Made by a program: the position numbers and the translations under genes. The notes under the pieces are model-generated. The model ran no database searches. It was not told the DNA's origin and worked only from the letters and a program-made list of their open reading frames with translations. A stretch of 7,997 bases of DNA, taken from the IMG/VR virus record IMGVR_UViG_2565956613_000013; one strand, given 5' to 3'. Below are positions 3,161 through 7,997 of the stretch, piece after piece. Every line of letters starts with the position of its first letter. Position 1 is the first letter of the stretch. Origin of the DNA: a virus. Its lineage: Duplodnaviria; Heunggongvirae; Uroviricota; Caudoviricetes.

Positions 3161-3516
3161 TGGCCAACAATAACGAAATTGATCCTTTGCTGACGCTGGA
3201 GTTATCCGGCGTAAAAACGTATGAGTCCCAGGAGGAGGCCTGGGGCGCTCGTTTATATGAGTGGCTAAACACTTATCAGGGTGAGGTATACGGAGATCCG
3301 TCATGGGGCAATGTTTTACCGCTGTTTAAACACGAACCGACCAACTTGTCGCATGTTCAAATTGCGGTTGAGGCAATGCTGTTGCAAAAACTGACGGTAG
3401 ATTTACCTGACATACCGATTTCTGGCTTGTCAGTAGCCGAGGGAGATGCTTTTGATAAGTTGAAAATATCCATTCGTATCAGGGATATAACTATCACACA
3501 GGACGTGGTGCTATGA
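3160..3516 (+). CDS. Small baseplate protein, gp25/GPW-like (P1 pmgA position)
   Basis: 118-codon ORF; its ATG at 3160-3162 overlaps the upstream TGA by one base (TGATG). The ORF track starts it at a TTG at 3157; I prefer the ATG. The segment EEAWGARLYEWLNTYQGEVYGDPSWGNVLPLFKHEPTN resembles the conserved core of GPW/gp25 baseplate wedge proteins as I recall it. Position directly after the tape-measure gene fits. Confidence 0.55.
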   Translation: MANNNEIDPLLTLELSGVKTYESQEEAWGARLYEWLNTYQGEVYGDPSWGNVLPLFKHEPTNLSHVQIAVEAMLLQKLTVDLPDIPISGLSVAEGDAFDKLKISIRIRDITITQDVVL

Positions 3517-4946
3517 GTAAAACAACACCGACTAAAGACAGTATTCGTGCAGAGTTTGAAGAGCTTGTCGAGAAAGATTCATTCTGGTCGAAGTTTGTCG
3601 GCTCTCAATTTGTCTCGATGCTGACATTGTTTATTACCCAGATTGTCTACAGGTGCTTTCAGTATGCCGATGCGGCGCTGGCTGAAGGCTTTATATCGAC
3701 CGCGACGCGGCGTTCCTCTATCCTGGCAGCGGCAGAAACGAATAGTTACGTTGGTACCAAGCCAACACCGTCATCGGGGATGATTGAGATCACCGCCACA
3801 AGTGAAGATGCCCCAGCGGTAATCCCCAAAAATATGCCTTTAATATCTGACGACCAGTACCCTTACATGACTATGGATGTATGCAGGTTGGTTGACGGCA
3901 CCGGTACGGTAGAAGTGGCACAGTTGGAAATCCAGGAGGTGACATATACCGTTACGGCAGCCAAAGAATTTCTGGAAGTCGTGTTATCAAAGGCTCTCAC
4001 TGCTGTCTGCTATAAGCTGGAAGTATTCGTGACGACCGATGGTAAGACCACGCAGTGGTCTTCCAGCACTATGTTCCGGTTAGCCGGTAGTAAAAGCCAG
4101 GTCTACGTTGAGTTTTATAAGCCATCCGAGCAGTTGGGGGTTCGATTCGGTGATGGGCTAATTGGGCAAATACCGCCAGAAGGCTCGACCATTACACTTA
4201 AGGTATGGTGCACCAACGGAGATATAACCCTGGTTGCTGGCCAAAACCTGACGCCTGTCGATTCTGCGGCTAATTTAGCTAATTTGATTTCAGTTAAGAC
4301 AACGACACCCATAACCGCAGGTACCGATGCCGAAACAACGGAGATCACACGTAATCGTGCACAATATTACCTTGCCTATGATGATCAGGTCGTATGGGGC
4401 GGGGACTATACGTATTTTTTGGTGCGTAACATCCCGGGACTGTCCTGGGTAAAGGCATGGGGCGAAGGCCAGCAAGAGAAATTAGATGGTGCTTATAATG
4501 TTCGGAATATCAATAAGATATTTATTTCAGGATGGCATCCAAACAAAAGCCAGTCAGAGCTTGAAGAAGTGATCCTGGCTGCCTTTAAGAAGGTGCCGAA
4601 TGAGTTGAACAAGAAATTCTCGTATAAAGAGGTCAGAAAACTCCCCTTTAAGATCACTATCACTGGGCGGATATCGGCAAGCCTGACCATTGAGAACGTG
4701 ACTGATGAGCTGAAGTCGGCACTGGAAACAAAATTTGGGCGTGACTCAACTTTCTTTGATCCGAACCGTGTTGGCAAGTACATCCTAATCAAGAAAAAAG
4801 ACGTTTGGGCATTTATCGAAACGCTGGGTTATTTCCGCGACTTTTATCTGGAATTTGTCGAGTGGAATGAGTCCAACGGCTTTTACGATTTCGTTTATCT
4901 GGATACAGAAAACTCCACCTTTAATATTTCGTATGAGGAGGAGTGA
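3513..4946 (+). CDS. Baseplate structural protein, probably baseplate-J / gp47-like (P1 bplA position)
   Basis: 477-codon ORF; its ATG at 3513 overlaps the upstream stop in an ATGA (4-nt) overlap, with AGGA about 10 nt upstream. The call is by synteny: phage baseplate modules run W-like, J-like, I-like, fibre. I did not recognise a specific motif. Confidence 0.5.
   Translation: MSKTTPTKDSIRAEFEELVEKDSFWSKFVGSQFVSMLTLFITQIVYRCFQYADAALAEGFISTATRRSSILAAAETNSYVGTKPTPSSGMIEITATSEDAPAVIPKNMPLISDDQYPYMTMDVCRLVDGTGTVEVAQLEIQEVTYTVTAAKEFLEVVLSKALTAVCYKLEVFVTTDGKTTQWSSSTMFRLAGSKSQVYVEFYKPSEQLGVRFGDGLIGQIPPEGSTITLKVWCTNGDITLVAGQNLTPVDSAANLANLISVKTTTPITAGTDAETTEITRNRAQYYLAYDDQVVWGGDYTYFLVRNIPGLSWVKAWGEGQQEKLDGAYNVRNINKIFISGWHPNKSQSELEEVILAAFKKVPNELNKKFSYKEVRKLPFKITITGRISASLTIENVTDELKSALETKFGRDSTFFDPNRVGKYILIKKKDVWAFIETLGYFRDFYLEFVEWNESNGFYDFVYLDTENSTFNISYEEE
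4934..4942 (+). promoter_or_regulatory. Strong Shine-Dalgarno sequence (GAGGAGGAG) for the gpI-like gene
   Basis: GAGGAGGAG ends 3 nt before the ATG at 4946, and lies inside the 3' end of the preceding gene; consistent with translational coupling. Confidence 0.6.
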
Positions 4947-5782
4947 TGCAGCGTTCCTGGTTTAATAACCGGCTTACATCAGCTAAGCAAAAGTCATTGC
5001 TCTATAAATCATTGGCTGATTTGGTTCAGTCAATGATGGATGCCTTTGTTGACCCATGGTTGGAGCGAATTACCAACCGGAAGTCTATTTTTTCCATGAG
5101 CAAGGAGGATCTGGAGACCAGGACAAATGAACTTGGCCAGTTCTTTACTATCAGAACGTCGAACTCATCTTCCGTTCCGATGTTGTTACAACAGCGTCTT
5201 GATGAGATTCACTTTAAGGGGACTGAACGCCCTATAAACCAGACAATTTACCGCGAATTTAACGGTATTTCTGTTTTATGGGATCCGATATATGCACCGG
5301 TGGACCTTGAGCGTCATCCCTATGGCACGGTTCTAATACCAGAAAGCACACTGGAGACTACCGGCGGCACATTCGGTGAGATGTTTCTGACTTCCAGAGG
5401 GATGATCAGTATTCCCATAAACGACCTGGCCCGGACAATGGGGATTACTGGCACGATAGATCAGTCCGCAATTACAGAAGAAATTCTCAGAAAGTTTAAT
5501 CAGTTCGTAAAGCCTCTACTGCCACTGCATATAGTGTTTGATGGGCTTACGCTCTATTTGTCGGTTGTTGTAAATGAACAGGCCGACATGATCACTTTGA
5601 ACGAGATTTCTGATACCGAAAAAGCATTCTGCTGGTTTGAAACTTCGGATACAACTTCGCTTACTGGAGTTACGTCGATTAGCGCCCCGATCACCGCAAC
5701 GCCTGGTGGCACTATTGTGAAAGCGACACCTACGTTTGATCGCACACGCGCAGATGATTTGTTGCTGGATAGCGACGCCTGA
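4946..5782 (+). CDS. Phage tail protein I-like baseplate protein (P2 gpI / Mu gp48 family; P1 gene 16 position)
   Basis: 278-codon ORF from the ATG at 4946, overlapping the upstream TGA by one base (TGATG); a strong Shine-Dalgarno GAGGAGGAG lies at 4934-4942. The track's alternative GTG start is at 4943. The segment IHFKGTERPINQTIYREF resembles the H-x-KGT region of P2 gpI-like proteins as I recall it. TGA stop at 5780-5782. Confidence 0.55.
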   Translation: MQRSWFNNRLTSAKQKSLLYKSLADLVQSMMDAFVDPWLERITNRKSIFSMSKEDLETRTNELGQFFTIRTSNSSSVPMLLQQRLDEIHFKGTERPINQTIYREFNGISVLWDPIYAPVDLERHPYGTVLIPESTLETTGGTFGEMFLTSRGMISIPINDLARTMGITGTIDQSAITEEILRKFNQFVKPLLPLHIVFDGLTLYLSVVVNEQADMITLNEISDTEKAFCWFETSDTTSLTGVTSISAPITATPGGTIVKATPTFDRTRADDLLLDSDA

Positions 5783-5785
5783 CAA

Positions 5786-5810
5786 TCACCCCGTCCGCAG
5801 GGCGGGGTGA
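5786..5810 (+). terminator. GC-rich hairpin in the intergenic gap: candidate weak intrinsic terminator, RNA-stabilising stem-loop, or dyad-symmetric regulator site
   Basis: TCACCCCG-TCCGCAGGG-CGGGGTGA: a perfect 8-bp inverted repeat around a 9-nt spacer, extendable by inner C-G pairs, starting 4 nt after the stop at 5782. The downstream sequence CAAGTTACTTCTCTTACAAT is only moderately T-rich, so any terminator would be weak. Confidence 0.3.
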
Positions 5811-5860
5811 CAAGTTACTTCTCTTACAATGAGGCTTCACAACATTGATTAGGGAAAATC

Positions 5861-6295
5861 ATGTCTGACGTCTCAACAAACCTCTATAAGAGTCAATTGT
5901 TGGACTATTACTATCAGCGGCGCGCTGAATCGTCCATTAACAAAGGCTCTCGATTTTTAATCAGCAAGGCCGTTTTCGGTACCAGTTCACTGGTTACTAA
6001 GAAAGGAGATGGCACTTATGAGATTGGAGAACTGCCAAAGGCTTTCGATCTGGCAGAACTGACCAGTCAATTTTGCACCATCAACCTCGTCCCAACCTAC
6101 TCAGGCGGGATAATTACTGTCCGAATGGACCTTGATCAAAGTCAGTTGCAGGAAGGGAAAAACTACCCATTCAACACTCTGGTTGTTCTGGATAACGAGA
6201 ATAAGCCAATCGCCATTATTTGTGTCCAGGAAGACTCGCTGTATGTGGGCAAAACATATACCGCAGTTATGGCCATAAACTCGACTACAGCATAA
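5861..6295 (+). CDS. Small tail-fibre-associated structural protein of unknown function (P1 R position)
   Basis: 144-codon ORF with ATG at 5861 and AGGGA at 5851-5855; TAA stop at 6293-6295. It sits directly upstream of the tail fibre gene and follows the only real intergenic gap in the window. It loosely resembles N-terminal anchor regions of P2 H-type fibres (NTLVVLDNENKPIAIICVQE), which is impressionistic. Confidence 0.45.
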   Translation: MSDVSTNLYKSQLLDYYYQRRAESSINKGSRFLISKAVFGTSSLVTKKGDGTYEIGELPKAFDLAELTSQFCTINLVPTYSGGIITVRMDLDQSQLQEGKNYPFNTLVVLDNENKPIAIICVQEDSLYVGKTYTAVMAINSTTA

Positions 6296-6306
6296 GGATA
6301 TGCTTG

Positions 6307-7997
6307 ATGAATGACGTTACAGTTGTTACATCGGTTACTTACCCATCACCCGAGTCGTTGGCTCTGGTGGCTGATGTGCAATACCACGAACCATATCTGT
6401 CAGCCGCTCTAAACCGAAAATTCAGGGGAATTGTTGACCCGGGATTTTATGCTGGTTTCTTGCCTAAGCCTGGCGGTGGGATGAACCTGTTAATCACCTC
6501 AGTGGATGGAGATAAAACCGCTGGCGCGGCGTCAGTGGATATTGGTGAATTCTACCAGGTAACTATTCAGCATCGTAAGGATATCTCTCTTGCACTTAAC
6601 GCAGGCAAGAAATATGCAATTGTGCTGAAGGGAAGATACCTTCTTGGAGAAGATACCTATCAGGTGAATACCGCGTCACATATTCATGCAGCTGAATTTG
6701 TTGCCAGAACCTATACCGATTCATATCAGTTAGGTGATGGGGAACTGCTGGTTTGTACGGTGAATATCCCTGCTGGCGTATCTACCATTACTCAAGAGAT
6801 GATTGATACATCCGAGCGTATCAACCGCACGATCGGCATTGATATTTCAGACTCTGTAACCAGTACCAGAAGTGATGTTGCTGCGAGTTCGCTGGCAGTT
6901 AAAAAAGCCTACGATCTGGCGAAAAGCAAGTATACGGCGCAGGATGCAAGCACAACGCAAAAGGGATTAGTTCAGCTCAGTAGTGCCACTAACAGTACGT
7001 CCGAAGTGCTGGCCGCCACACCGAAAGCTGTCAAGGCTGCATATGACCTGGCTAACGGGAAGTATACAGCCCAGGATGCAACCACGACACAAAAAGGGAT
7101 AGTTCAGCTCAGTAGCGACACCAACAGCACTTCTGAAACATTAGCTGCAACTCCAAAAGCGGTTAAAGCTGCATACGATCTAGCAGCCGGAAAGGCACCA
7201 TCCAGTCATACACATCCCTGGAATCAGATCACTGGTGTGCCAACAGCTTCATTGACAGCGAAAGGCATCACTCAGCTCAGTAGTGCCACTAACAGCACGT
7301 CTGAAGTGCTGGCCGCCACACCGAAAGCTGTCAAGTCTGTAAAAGATCTTGCTGATACCAAAGCGCCAATAGAAAGCCCGAGTCTGACAGGAACGCCAAC
7401 CGCGCCGACGGCAGCGCAAGGTACAAACAGCACGCAGATCGCAAATACAGCCTTTGTTAAGGCAGCTATAACGGCACTTATCAACGGTGCACCTGGCACA
7501 TTGGATACGCTGAAAGAAATAGCGGCTGCGATCAATAACGACCCGAATTTCAGCACAACTATCAACAATGCCTTGGCTCTCAAAGCGCCTTTGGCAAGCC
7601 CTGCATTAACGGGTGTCCCTACTGCGCCTACCGCTGCACAGGGTACGAATAACACGCAGATTGCTACGACCGCTTATGTAAGAGCTGCCATATCCGCATT
7701 GGTTGGTTCATCACCAGAAGCTCTTGATACCCTGAATGAGCTTGCCGCAGCACTTGGCAATGACCCGAACTTTGCGACAACAATGACAAATGCGCTGGCA
7801 GGCAAACAGCCTCTGGATGCAACTTTAACCGCTCTCGCTGCCCTTGCGACTGGTGCAAACAAACTGCCTTATTTCACTGGTAAGGATACGGTAGCTCAGA
7901 CTGATTTAACGTCAGTCGGTCGCGATATTCTGGCTAAAACAAGCACACTGGCCGTTATCCAATACCTTGGTTTAAGAGAACTCGGTACCAGCGGTGA
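6307..7997 (+). CDS. Side tail fibre protein, constant N-terminal part (P1/Mu S-type, lambda Stf / P2 H-related); 3' partial, continues beyond the window
   Basis: I translated this by hand from the ATG at 6307 (AGGA at 6295-6298): frame 1 is open for 563 codons to the window end. It is missing from the supplied ORF track because it has no stop inside the window. It contains the tail-fibre repeat KG(L/I)VQLSSATNSTSE(V/T)LAATPKAVKAAYDLA and the conserved block NDPNFATTMTNALAGKQPLDATLTALAALATGANKLPYFTGKDTVAQTDLTSVGRDILAK that I recall from lambda Stf and P2 H. Confidence 0.9.
   Translation, partial: MNDVTVVTSVTYPSPESLALVADVQYHEPYLSAALNRKFRGIVDPGFYAGFLPKPGGGMNLLITSVDGDKTAGAASVDIGEFYQVTIQHRKDISLALNAGKKYAIVLKGRYLLGEDTYQVNTASHIHAAEFVARTYTDSYQLGDGELLVCTVNIPAGVSTITQEMIDTSERINRTIGIDISDSVTSTRSDVAASSLAVKKAYDLAKSKYTAQDASTTQKGLVQLSSATNSTSEVLAATPKAVKAAYDLANGKYTAQDATTTQKGIVQLSSDTNSTSETLAATPKAVKAAYDLAAGKAPSSHTHPWNQITGVPTASLTAKGITQLSSATNSTSEVLAATPKAVKSVKDLADTKAPIESPSLTGTPTAPTAAQGTNSTQIANTAFVKAAITALINGAPGTLDTLKEIAAAINNDPNFSTTINNALALKAPLASPALTGVPTAPTAAQGTNNTQIATTAYVRAAISALVGSSPEALDTLNELAAALGNDPNFATTMTNALAGKQPLDATLTALAALATGANKLPYFTGKDTVAQTDLTSVGRDILAKTSTLAVIQYLGLRELGTSG
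6901..7335 (+). repeat. In-frame tail-fibre repeats: two tandem 44-aa units (6901-7032, 7033-7164) plus a third partial copy (7258-7335)
   Basis: Units KKAYDLAKSKYTAQDASTTQKGLVQLSSATNSTSEVLAATPKAV and KAAYDLANGKYTAQDATTTQKGIVQLSSDTNSTSETLAATPKAV have a 132-nt period. Nucleotides 6972-7035 and 7272-7335 match over 64 nt with 2 mismatches (6996 and 7002), exactly 300 bp apart. Confidence 0.85.
7360..7803 (+). repeat. Two tandem 74-aa (222-nt) repeats in the tail fibre
   Basis: Unit 1 (7360-7581) KAPIESPSLTGTPTAPTAAQGTNSTQIANTAFVKAAITALINGAPGTLDTLKEIAAAINNDPNFSTTINNALAL versus unit 2 (7582-7803) KAPLASPALTGVPTAPTAAQGTNNTQIATTAYVRAAISALVGSSPEALDTLNELAAALGNDPNFATTMTNALAG; I counted 51/74 identical residues. 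The nucleotide sequences are diverged. Confidence 0.8.
7955..7980. other. Candidate 26-bp DNA-invertase crossover site (hix/gix/cix family) inside the fibre coding sequence; likely left boundary of an invertible host-range segment
   Basis: TTATCCAATACCTTGGTTTAAGAGAA. Its reverse complement TTCTCTTAAACCAAGGTATTGGATAA matches the Mu gixL sequence as I recall it (TTCCTGTAAACCGAGGTTTTGGATAA) at 21 of 26 positions, and matches Salmonella hixL at 20 of 26. It has the imperfect dyad around a central TT/AA typical of these sites, and it sits where P1 and Mu place the site in the S gene. Confidence 0.6.

Follow-up and report, generated by a model that had tools for sequence, protein, structure and literature searches.

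A probable P1-type cixR crossover site at the end of the constant tail-fibre region in a P1-like phage-plasmid

The 26-bp sequence TTATCCAATACCTTGGTTTAAGAGAA, located at positions 7955-7980 of the + strand of the analysed stretch of phage DNA (7,997 nt in total, referred to below as the window), is an exact copy of P1 cixR and very probably serves as the right-hand crossover site of a Cin/C-segment switch in a P1-like phage-plasmid. The window ends 17 nt past this site, and the partner site, the cin gene and the alternative fibre ends all lie beyond that end. Since the nearest relatives of the window, as well as all four known carriers of its variant of the constant fibre region, have the full switch, comparison of their sequences makes it highly likely that the source of the window contains a complete and functional switch of the P1 type; it is from these relatives that we infer the partner components and the inversion in the window's own replicon. 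Both the identity of cixR and the Cin switch are textbook matters, and the original prediction rightly spoke of known biology in this respect, as the P1 Cin switch is long established.

The identity of the site follows from its comparison with the published table of Din-family sites (PMC3241671, Table 3). The reverse complement of the window 26-mer agrees in 26 of 26 positions with cixR, given there as TTCTCTTAAACC-AA-GGTATTGGATAA, and in 22 of 26 with cixL, given as TTCTCTTAAACC-AA-GGTTTAGGATTG (PMC3241671). The corresponding values are 21/26 for gixL and gixR, 21/26 for hixL, 20/26 for pixL and 15-19/26 for the mix sites of p15B. The assignment of the sequence to the hix/gix/cix family, proposed earlier without mention of its exact identity to P1 cixR, is thus correct, and the site is unique in the window (one occurrence in a search allowing up to 3 mismatches). 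The similarity to Mu gixL had been given as 21/26, in agreement with the table and with the Mu genome, which reads TTATCCAAAACCTCGGTTTACAGGAA at the left G-segment boundary, while the 20/26 given for hixL was one too low. The site has the layout of Din-type sites, TTATCCAATACC-TT-GGTTTAAGAGAA, with two 12-bp half-sites, symmetric in 8 of 12 positions about the central TT, and a 2-bp core, which in this family is the exchange point (PMC3241671).

The same 26-mer is present at positions 7856-7881 of the curated GenBank record of P1 (locus L001), the annotation of which served as the source of P1 reference features. It overlaps there the features 'recombination site cixR' and 'crossover site within cixR ... 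right C-segment boundary', as well as the end of Sc. The annotated crossover between positions 7868 and 7869 of that record corresponds to window positions 7967/7968. In the window, the 26-mer is in frame in S, where it covers codons 550-558 and codes for (V)IQYLGLRE within ...VGRDILAKTSTLAVIQYLGLRELGTSG; it corresponds in position to the Sc/Sv boundary of P1, with LPs and R conserved upstream. The site had been placed inside the fibre ORF, which is the case, and right after the YLGLRE block, which is not, as it overlaps this block and encodes it. That the constant part of S meets the variable part here is corroborated by the P1 annotation, which puts both the crossover and the C-segment boundary at this point. 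The relevant features of the window are the following:

5812-5830, + strand: P1 late promoter LPs (alignment to annotated P1 LPs)
5861-6295, + strand: R, first gene of the R-S-U tail-fibre operon (open reading frame; position matches P1 R, L001 6062-6496)
6307-7967, + strand: Sc, constant N-terminal part of S, about 553 codons (translation, alignment to P1 S, P1 annotation)
7955-7980, + strand: cixR, 26-bp Cin crossover site, reverse complement of the published sequence (published cixR; P1 L001 7856-7881)
7955-7966, + strand: outer, constant-side 12-bp half-site TTATCCAATACC, the half that differs between cixR and cixL
7967-7968, + strand: central TT, point of strand cutting and exchange, bases 2-3 of the Leu554 codon of S (P1 annotation, published table)
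7969-7980, + strand: inner, segment-side 12-bp half-site GGTTTAAGAGAA, the same in cixR and cixL
7968-7997, + strand: initial 30 nt of the invertible C segment, where the terminal inverted repeat begins, identical in both orientations (repeat I2 of the nearest relative, L004, described below)

The window represents the sit-pmgA-bplA-16-R-S region of a P1-like E. coli phage-plasmid. Its genes, in the order sit, pmgA, bplA, 16, R and S, are collinear with those of curated P1; the Sit protein is represented by its C-terminal 1052 aa with an SLT domain, and the bplA product is baseplate J/gp6-like. Matches to the full window number in the hundreds among IncY-type E. coli phage-plasmids, and its final 1.7 kb are 93-95% identical to the relevant sequences of P1, P7, RCS47, SJ46, JL22 and D6, with a cix site annotated beneath the match in several records of the P1 family. 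The R proteins of the relatives share one protein accession at the matching position. The S reading frame starts at position 6307 and runs off the window end, and its product contains four Phage_fiber_2 stretches (Pfam, E 5e-66). Outside a 100-aa insertion the window Sc is 97% identical to P1 Sc. The insertion (aa 223-322, nt 6973-7272) is clean and consists of extra fibre repeats.

Upstream of R, the -22 box (5812-5820) and the -10 box (5825-5830) of LPs are both identical to those of P1, and the spacer differs by one substitution, at position 5821. A scan of positions 5700-6320 for sigma-70 promoters and intrinsic terminators found none, which for sigma-70 promoters is to be expected, as LPs is a P1 late promoter. 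At the other end, window positions 7981-7997 are the reverse complement of the sequence adjoining cixL in the nearest relative. These last 17 nt are part of the terminal inverted repeat and read identically whichever way the segment lies, so that the orientation in the source is not readable from the window.

The best match to the window, the record NZ_JBWLLS010000002.1 (L004), differs from it by 2 mismatches in 7997 nt, both in sit (positions 1945 and 2589); the search reported 100.0% identity, the mismatches being revealed by direct comparison, and no record fully identical to the window was present among the database matches. The L004 sequence downstream of the region shared with the window contains the remaining parts of the switch. 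An exact cixL is located, in inverted orientation, at positions 22508-22533, 5553 nt from cixR, and a scan of positions 15300-23300 with all 14 sequences of the published table (hix, gix, cix, pix, mix and bix) at up to 7 mismatches revealed no Din-type sites besides these two. The S gene reaches its stop codon 2.2 kb further downstream and is followed by a chaperone gene on the same strand and then by a second, opposed chaperone gene on the opposite strand, both of the Caudo_TAP type. The opposite strand also carries Sv', a promoterless fibre C-terminus, labelled by PGAP as 'incomplete, missing N-terminus'. After cixL there is a 561-nt recombinase gene, the product of which, with Resolvase and HTH_7 domains, is identical to P1 Cin over all 186 residues (100%), and the annotated 72-bp enhancer of P1 is present inside this gene in exact form. 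The segment is bordered by the inverted repeat I2 (16957-17274 vs. 22214-22531).

When L004 positions 16968-22520 are inverted in silico, Sc continues in frame into the alternative end, giving an S' protein of 1319 aa with a different tip, as compared to 1273 aa of the recorded S. Because cixR and cixL have the same inner half-site, inversion regenerates both sites, and indeed both junction sequences remain unchanged in the inverted sequence. As judged from its sequence, the L004 locus is a simple two-site switch and not a multi-site system of the p15B type, and all its cis and trans components are the same as those of P1. The elements that the original prediction expected downstream, namely an inverted second site, an alternative fibre C-terminus with opposed chaperone genes and a serine recombinase of roughly 190 aa (here the 186-aa Cin), are all found in this record, and likewise in the other three known records with the Sc variant.

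In P1, Cin inverts the C segment at cixL and cixR, switching the S- and S'-determined host range (bioRxiv 10.1101/2022.07.24.501295), and the invertases of the Hin/Gin/Cin family act within an invertasome containing Fis and an enhancer, by subunit rotation (PMC3798978). By analogy, dimers of the serine invertase Cin would bind cixR and its inverted partner cixL several kb away, and host Fis bound to the enhancer inside cin would assemble with the Cin-bound sites into a synaptic complex on supercoiled DNA. After both sites had been cut in their 2-bp core, one subunit pair would turn by 180 degrees before the DNA was religated. The segment would thereby flip, with LPs, R and the constant part of S remaining fixed upstream, so that LPs would drive R, Sc and whichever variable end adjoins Sc. 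Inversion would join Sc at Leu554 either to Sv or to Sv', each followed by its own chaperone gene, U or U', and progeny phages would carry one of two host ranges.

The cixR site is the point at which the tail-fibre gene passes from the fixed shaft to the swappable receptor-binding end, and for this reason assemblies and annotations differ here, with one of the fibre ends being called a pseudogene. The phage-plasmid probably makes particles of two host ranges, a relevant point given the resistance genes that P1-like phage-plasmids carry.

An exact cixR is in itself insufficient as evidence for a live switch, since there are carriers in which it is an orphan. The exact 26-mer was found in 77 contigs of IMG/VR, 15 of which contain enough downstream sequence to be classified. 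Eight of the 15 have exact cixL and full-length Cin, and the other seven reach the lyd genes with neither a full cin nor a Din-type partner. Similarly, NZ_CP062905.1, with 98.3% identity to the window, carries the 26-mer in exact form but neither cin nor a partner site; it has instead a single long fibre gene, together with one assembly gene and a serine acetyltransferase gene. The same fixed-fibre arrangement has been described for JL22 (PMC9603915). Among complete E. coli genomes, a full-length match to cin was found in 144 records and most of the tail region in 414, although the cin search gives only a rough prevalence, as many of its 424 matching records are partial or diverged. The 26-mer is a coding sequence, and its conservation alone is therefore no sign of its use; an exact cixR can persist as coding sequence.

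The source of the window might accordingly be a replicon that has lost cin, in which the module has been replaced by a single fixed fibre end, nothing inverts, and the site is nothing but the coding sequence for IQYLGLRE. While this state is common among the carriers just described, including the closely related NZ_CP062905.1, we consider it quite unlikely for the window on account of the Sc insertion. This variant is rare, being found in 2 of 5,426 complete E. coli genomes and in two PLSDB plasmids, and cixL as well as an intact cin is present in all four known carriers, whose identity to the window is 99.5-99.97%. None of the testable orphan carriers has the insertion; it is absent from all IMG/VR contigs with the 26-mer whose upstream DNA could be tested, and from L084. 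Exact cixL is located 4.5-6.0 kb downstream in MK410117 (L002), CP103660 (L003), L004 and L085. If the source of the window has the switch, inverted TTCTCTTAAACCAAGGTTTAGGATTG would be expected 4-6 kb away, followed by the cin gene for a 186-aa protein. The earlier view that the site implies a switch is therefore supported by way of the nearest relatives, but the site alone does not prove it. For the scanning of phage genomes this means that an exact cix site is necessary and not sufficient for a working switch, and that the downstream DNA needs to be checked, as about half of the classifiable carriers have neither the invertase nor the partner site.

A multi-site inversion system like Min of p15B, in which several sites shuffle many cassettes of fibre ends, is a much less probable interpretation. 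According to the P1 annotation, the stretch from gene 16 to Sc (L001 5482-7197) is 96% identical to p15B, and the segments of the relatives are mosaics with internal inverted repeats. However, Min has six mix sites, whereas the scanned part of L004 contains only cixR and cixL, which led us to reject a p15B Min-type system for this record; moreover, the window site agrees with the mix sites in only 15-19 of 26 positions, and the L004 invertase is identical to Cin. Finally, although the site lies within a conserved coding block, the probability that it resembles a recombination site by chance or owing to coding constraints, with no evolutionary link to such a site, is negligible, this being refuted by its full identity to cixR and by synteny, in a region collinear with and 93-97% identical to that of P1, and no match to the 26-mer was obtained in 200 dinucleotide-preserving shuffles.

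Inversion isomers with the same two sites exist among natural plasmids. A search with the whole segment led to two E. fergusonii plasmids, NZ_AP028829.1 and NZ_AP028823.1, which have the same flanks and coordinates but swapped chaperone genes. Both carry the 26-mer of the window and cixL in exact form, and they represent a lineage different from that of the window. When NZ_AP028829.1 is inverted in silico at the cix centres, it becomes identical to NZ_AP028823.1, with 0 mismatches in 14,001 nt. As the arms of these plasmids are perfect inverted repeats for 444 nt, which places the exchange point only to the interval from -4 to +444 nt, homologous recombination could give the same isomers, and the pair does not separate the action of Cin from homologous exchange.

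In the window's own lineage (L002, L003 and L004) the segments differ in a mosaic manner and not by a clean flip. In L002 (99.9% identity to the window), a stretch of 540 nt that borders cixR in L004 is found beside cixL; we considered this record as an isomer of L004 and rejected it as a clean one, because a fuller comparison revealed a mosaic, in which some repeats are additional and the distal parts collinear. A cix inversion was likewise rejected as the difference between L003 and L004, in which the cix-proximal parts have the same orientation and the inner 2.7 kb are inverted, with endpoints in an internal repeat and not at the cix sites. Junction probes were also compared with complete E. 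coli genomes; at a coverage of at least 80%, the Sc-Sv junction was matched in 52 records and the in-silico Sc-Sv' junction in 70. Most of these matches contain an insert of about 520 nt and are 92-96% identical, and the result therefore says no more than that each of the two ends occurs joined to Sc in nature.

The inner inversion between L003 and L004, ending in a repeat of 528 nt, raises the idea of a second level of rearrangement. The internal inverted repeats in question (L004 17662-18189 and 21230-21757) are 528 nt long and 93% identical. In the lineage with the Sc variant, the fibre locus may, as a rather doubtful but conceivable possibility, rearrange at two nested levels and give four combinations of proximal shaft and distal tip instead of two. 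The first level would be the Cin inversion at cixR and cixL, and the second an inversion between these internal repeats.

Compared to the P1 Cin system, the site is identical (26/26) and falls, where Sc ends, on the same codon position, in an operon of the same LPs-R-S organization, and cixL, the Cin protein and the enhancer of the relatives are all identical to those of P1. Differences concern the Sc of the window, with its 100 additional residues of fibre repeats, and the size of the C segment, which is 5.55 kb in the relatives vs. 4.26 kb in P1. The terminal inverted repeat of the relatives (318 nt at 83%) is more diverged than that of P1, and, unlike P1, they have the second, internal repeat of 528 nt at 93%. 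Additionally, in L004 it is an end similar to P1 S' that is joined to Sc, as compared to the P1 reference.

In the Gin/G-segment system of phage Mu, the site likewise lies within S where the constant part gives way to the variable one, the cassettes are S/U and S'/U', and the gene of a serine invertase is located next to them; Mu gix agrees with the window site in 21 of 26 positions. The gix core, however, is GA/TC instead of AA/TT, and Mu also has other half-sites, another invertase (Gin) and another phage backbone. The hix sites of Salmonella share with the window site the length of 26 bp, the two 12-bp half-sites and the AA/TT core (21/26 for hixL), and Hin is also a serine invertase dependent on Fis and an enhancer, but it flips a promoter to switch flagellin genes and not the coding end of a fibre gene (PMC3798978).

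Among phages of the same backbone, those of the JL22 and NZ_CP062905.1 type have kept the exact cixR 26-mer but have no partner site and no cin, and their fibre is therefore fixed. In SJ46, the homology to the window ends inside the crossover site; the outer half-site has been kept, forming the hybrid site TTATCCAATACCTTGGTTTAGGCGAA, but the module downstream is one of a Pin-type invertase, with only a remnant of cin. Such orphan and hybrid cix sites may be the marks of a Din-mediated exchange of cassettes between elements.

A clean case of inversion at the C segment, the invertible DNA carrying the alternative fibre ends, is a pair of Escherichia fergusonii IncY/IncQ1 phage-plasmids, NZ_AP028829.1 (L086) and NZ_AP028823.1 (L087), which are exact inversion isomers with a C segment of 4278 nt: once this segment is inverted in silico in one of them, the two agree over 14 kb with 0 mismatches. 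Within the plasmid series to which this pair belongs, one orientation is found in six records and the other in two. The positions referred to here and below are as follows.

L086 and L087, 5790-10068: inverted C segment (in-silico inversion)
Salmonella phage SJ46 (L083), 8356-8381 and 11580-11605: entry for the hybrid crossover site
NZ_CP062905.1 (L084), 15655-15680: orphan cixR, exact 26-mer

The record nearest to the window, NZ_JBWLLS010000002.1 (L004), has a C(-)-like orientation relative to the P1 reference (L001): comparison of L004 18079-21340 with L001 8377-11616 indicates that the cassette similar to P1 Sv'/U' is joined to the constant part of the fibre gene (Sc), while the end similar to P1 Sv is silent. 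The C segment of L004 also contains an inverted repeat of 528 nt (93% identity; 17662-18189 and 21230-21757). In CP103660 (L003) and L004 the cix-proximal parts are common and in the same orientation, whereas the inner 2.7 kb (16677-19345 in L003) is inverted, with the endpoints of this inner inversion in the 528-nt repeat. This pattern hints at a second, nested rearrangement.

Not all relatives retain a C segment bounded by two sites. The exact cixR 26-mer occurs with neither a partner site nor an intact cin in the P1-like elements L084, L009, L014, L020, L046, L050, L081, and L082, in which the fibre is fixed; L009, L046, and L081 retain short remnants only. Downstream of the fixed fibre gene in L084 lie a single assembly gene and a gene for a serine acetyltransferase. 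Among classifiable IMG/VR contigs, 7 of the 15 are in this orphan state.

The homology between SJ46 and the window ends within the crossover site itself, and the SJ46 site is a hybrid, with the outer half from cixR and a different inner half. SJ46 additionally encodes a Pin-type invertase and carries a 225-nt remnant of cin. These features suggest a cassette swap at the crossover point.

Relative to P1 S, extra Phage_fiber_2-type repeats are cleanly inserted in the window Sc, adding 100 aa (6973-7272). This variant is rare: a set of 5,426 complete E. coli genomes contains only 2 carriers, and the only others known are two PLSDB plasmids, which have an additional insert of ~297 nt. Upstream of R, in the stretch 5787-5830, the boxes of the P1 late promoter LPs are kept in the window, with a single substitution, at 5821, in the spacer. 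Directly upstream of these boxes, at about 5787-5809, lies an inverted repeat rich in GC (CACCCCG...CGGGGTG), which was not flagged in a simple terminator scan because no T run follows it.

The window differs from L004 at only two positions, 1945 (C/A) and 2589 (A/G), both within sit, a gene whose start point varies in the PGAP annotation of near-identical plasmids (2991 nt vs. 3690 nt). The silent Sv' of L004 (20222-22312) is labelled a pseudogene with a "missing N-terminus", which is an annotation artefact inherent to invertible fibre ends. Another annotation artefact is the inconsistent naming of the bplA homologue (window 3513-4946), described as "bleomycin hydrolase" in some records and as "baseplate J/gp47" in others.
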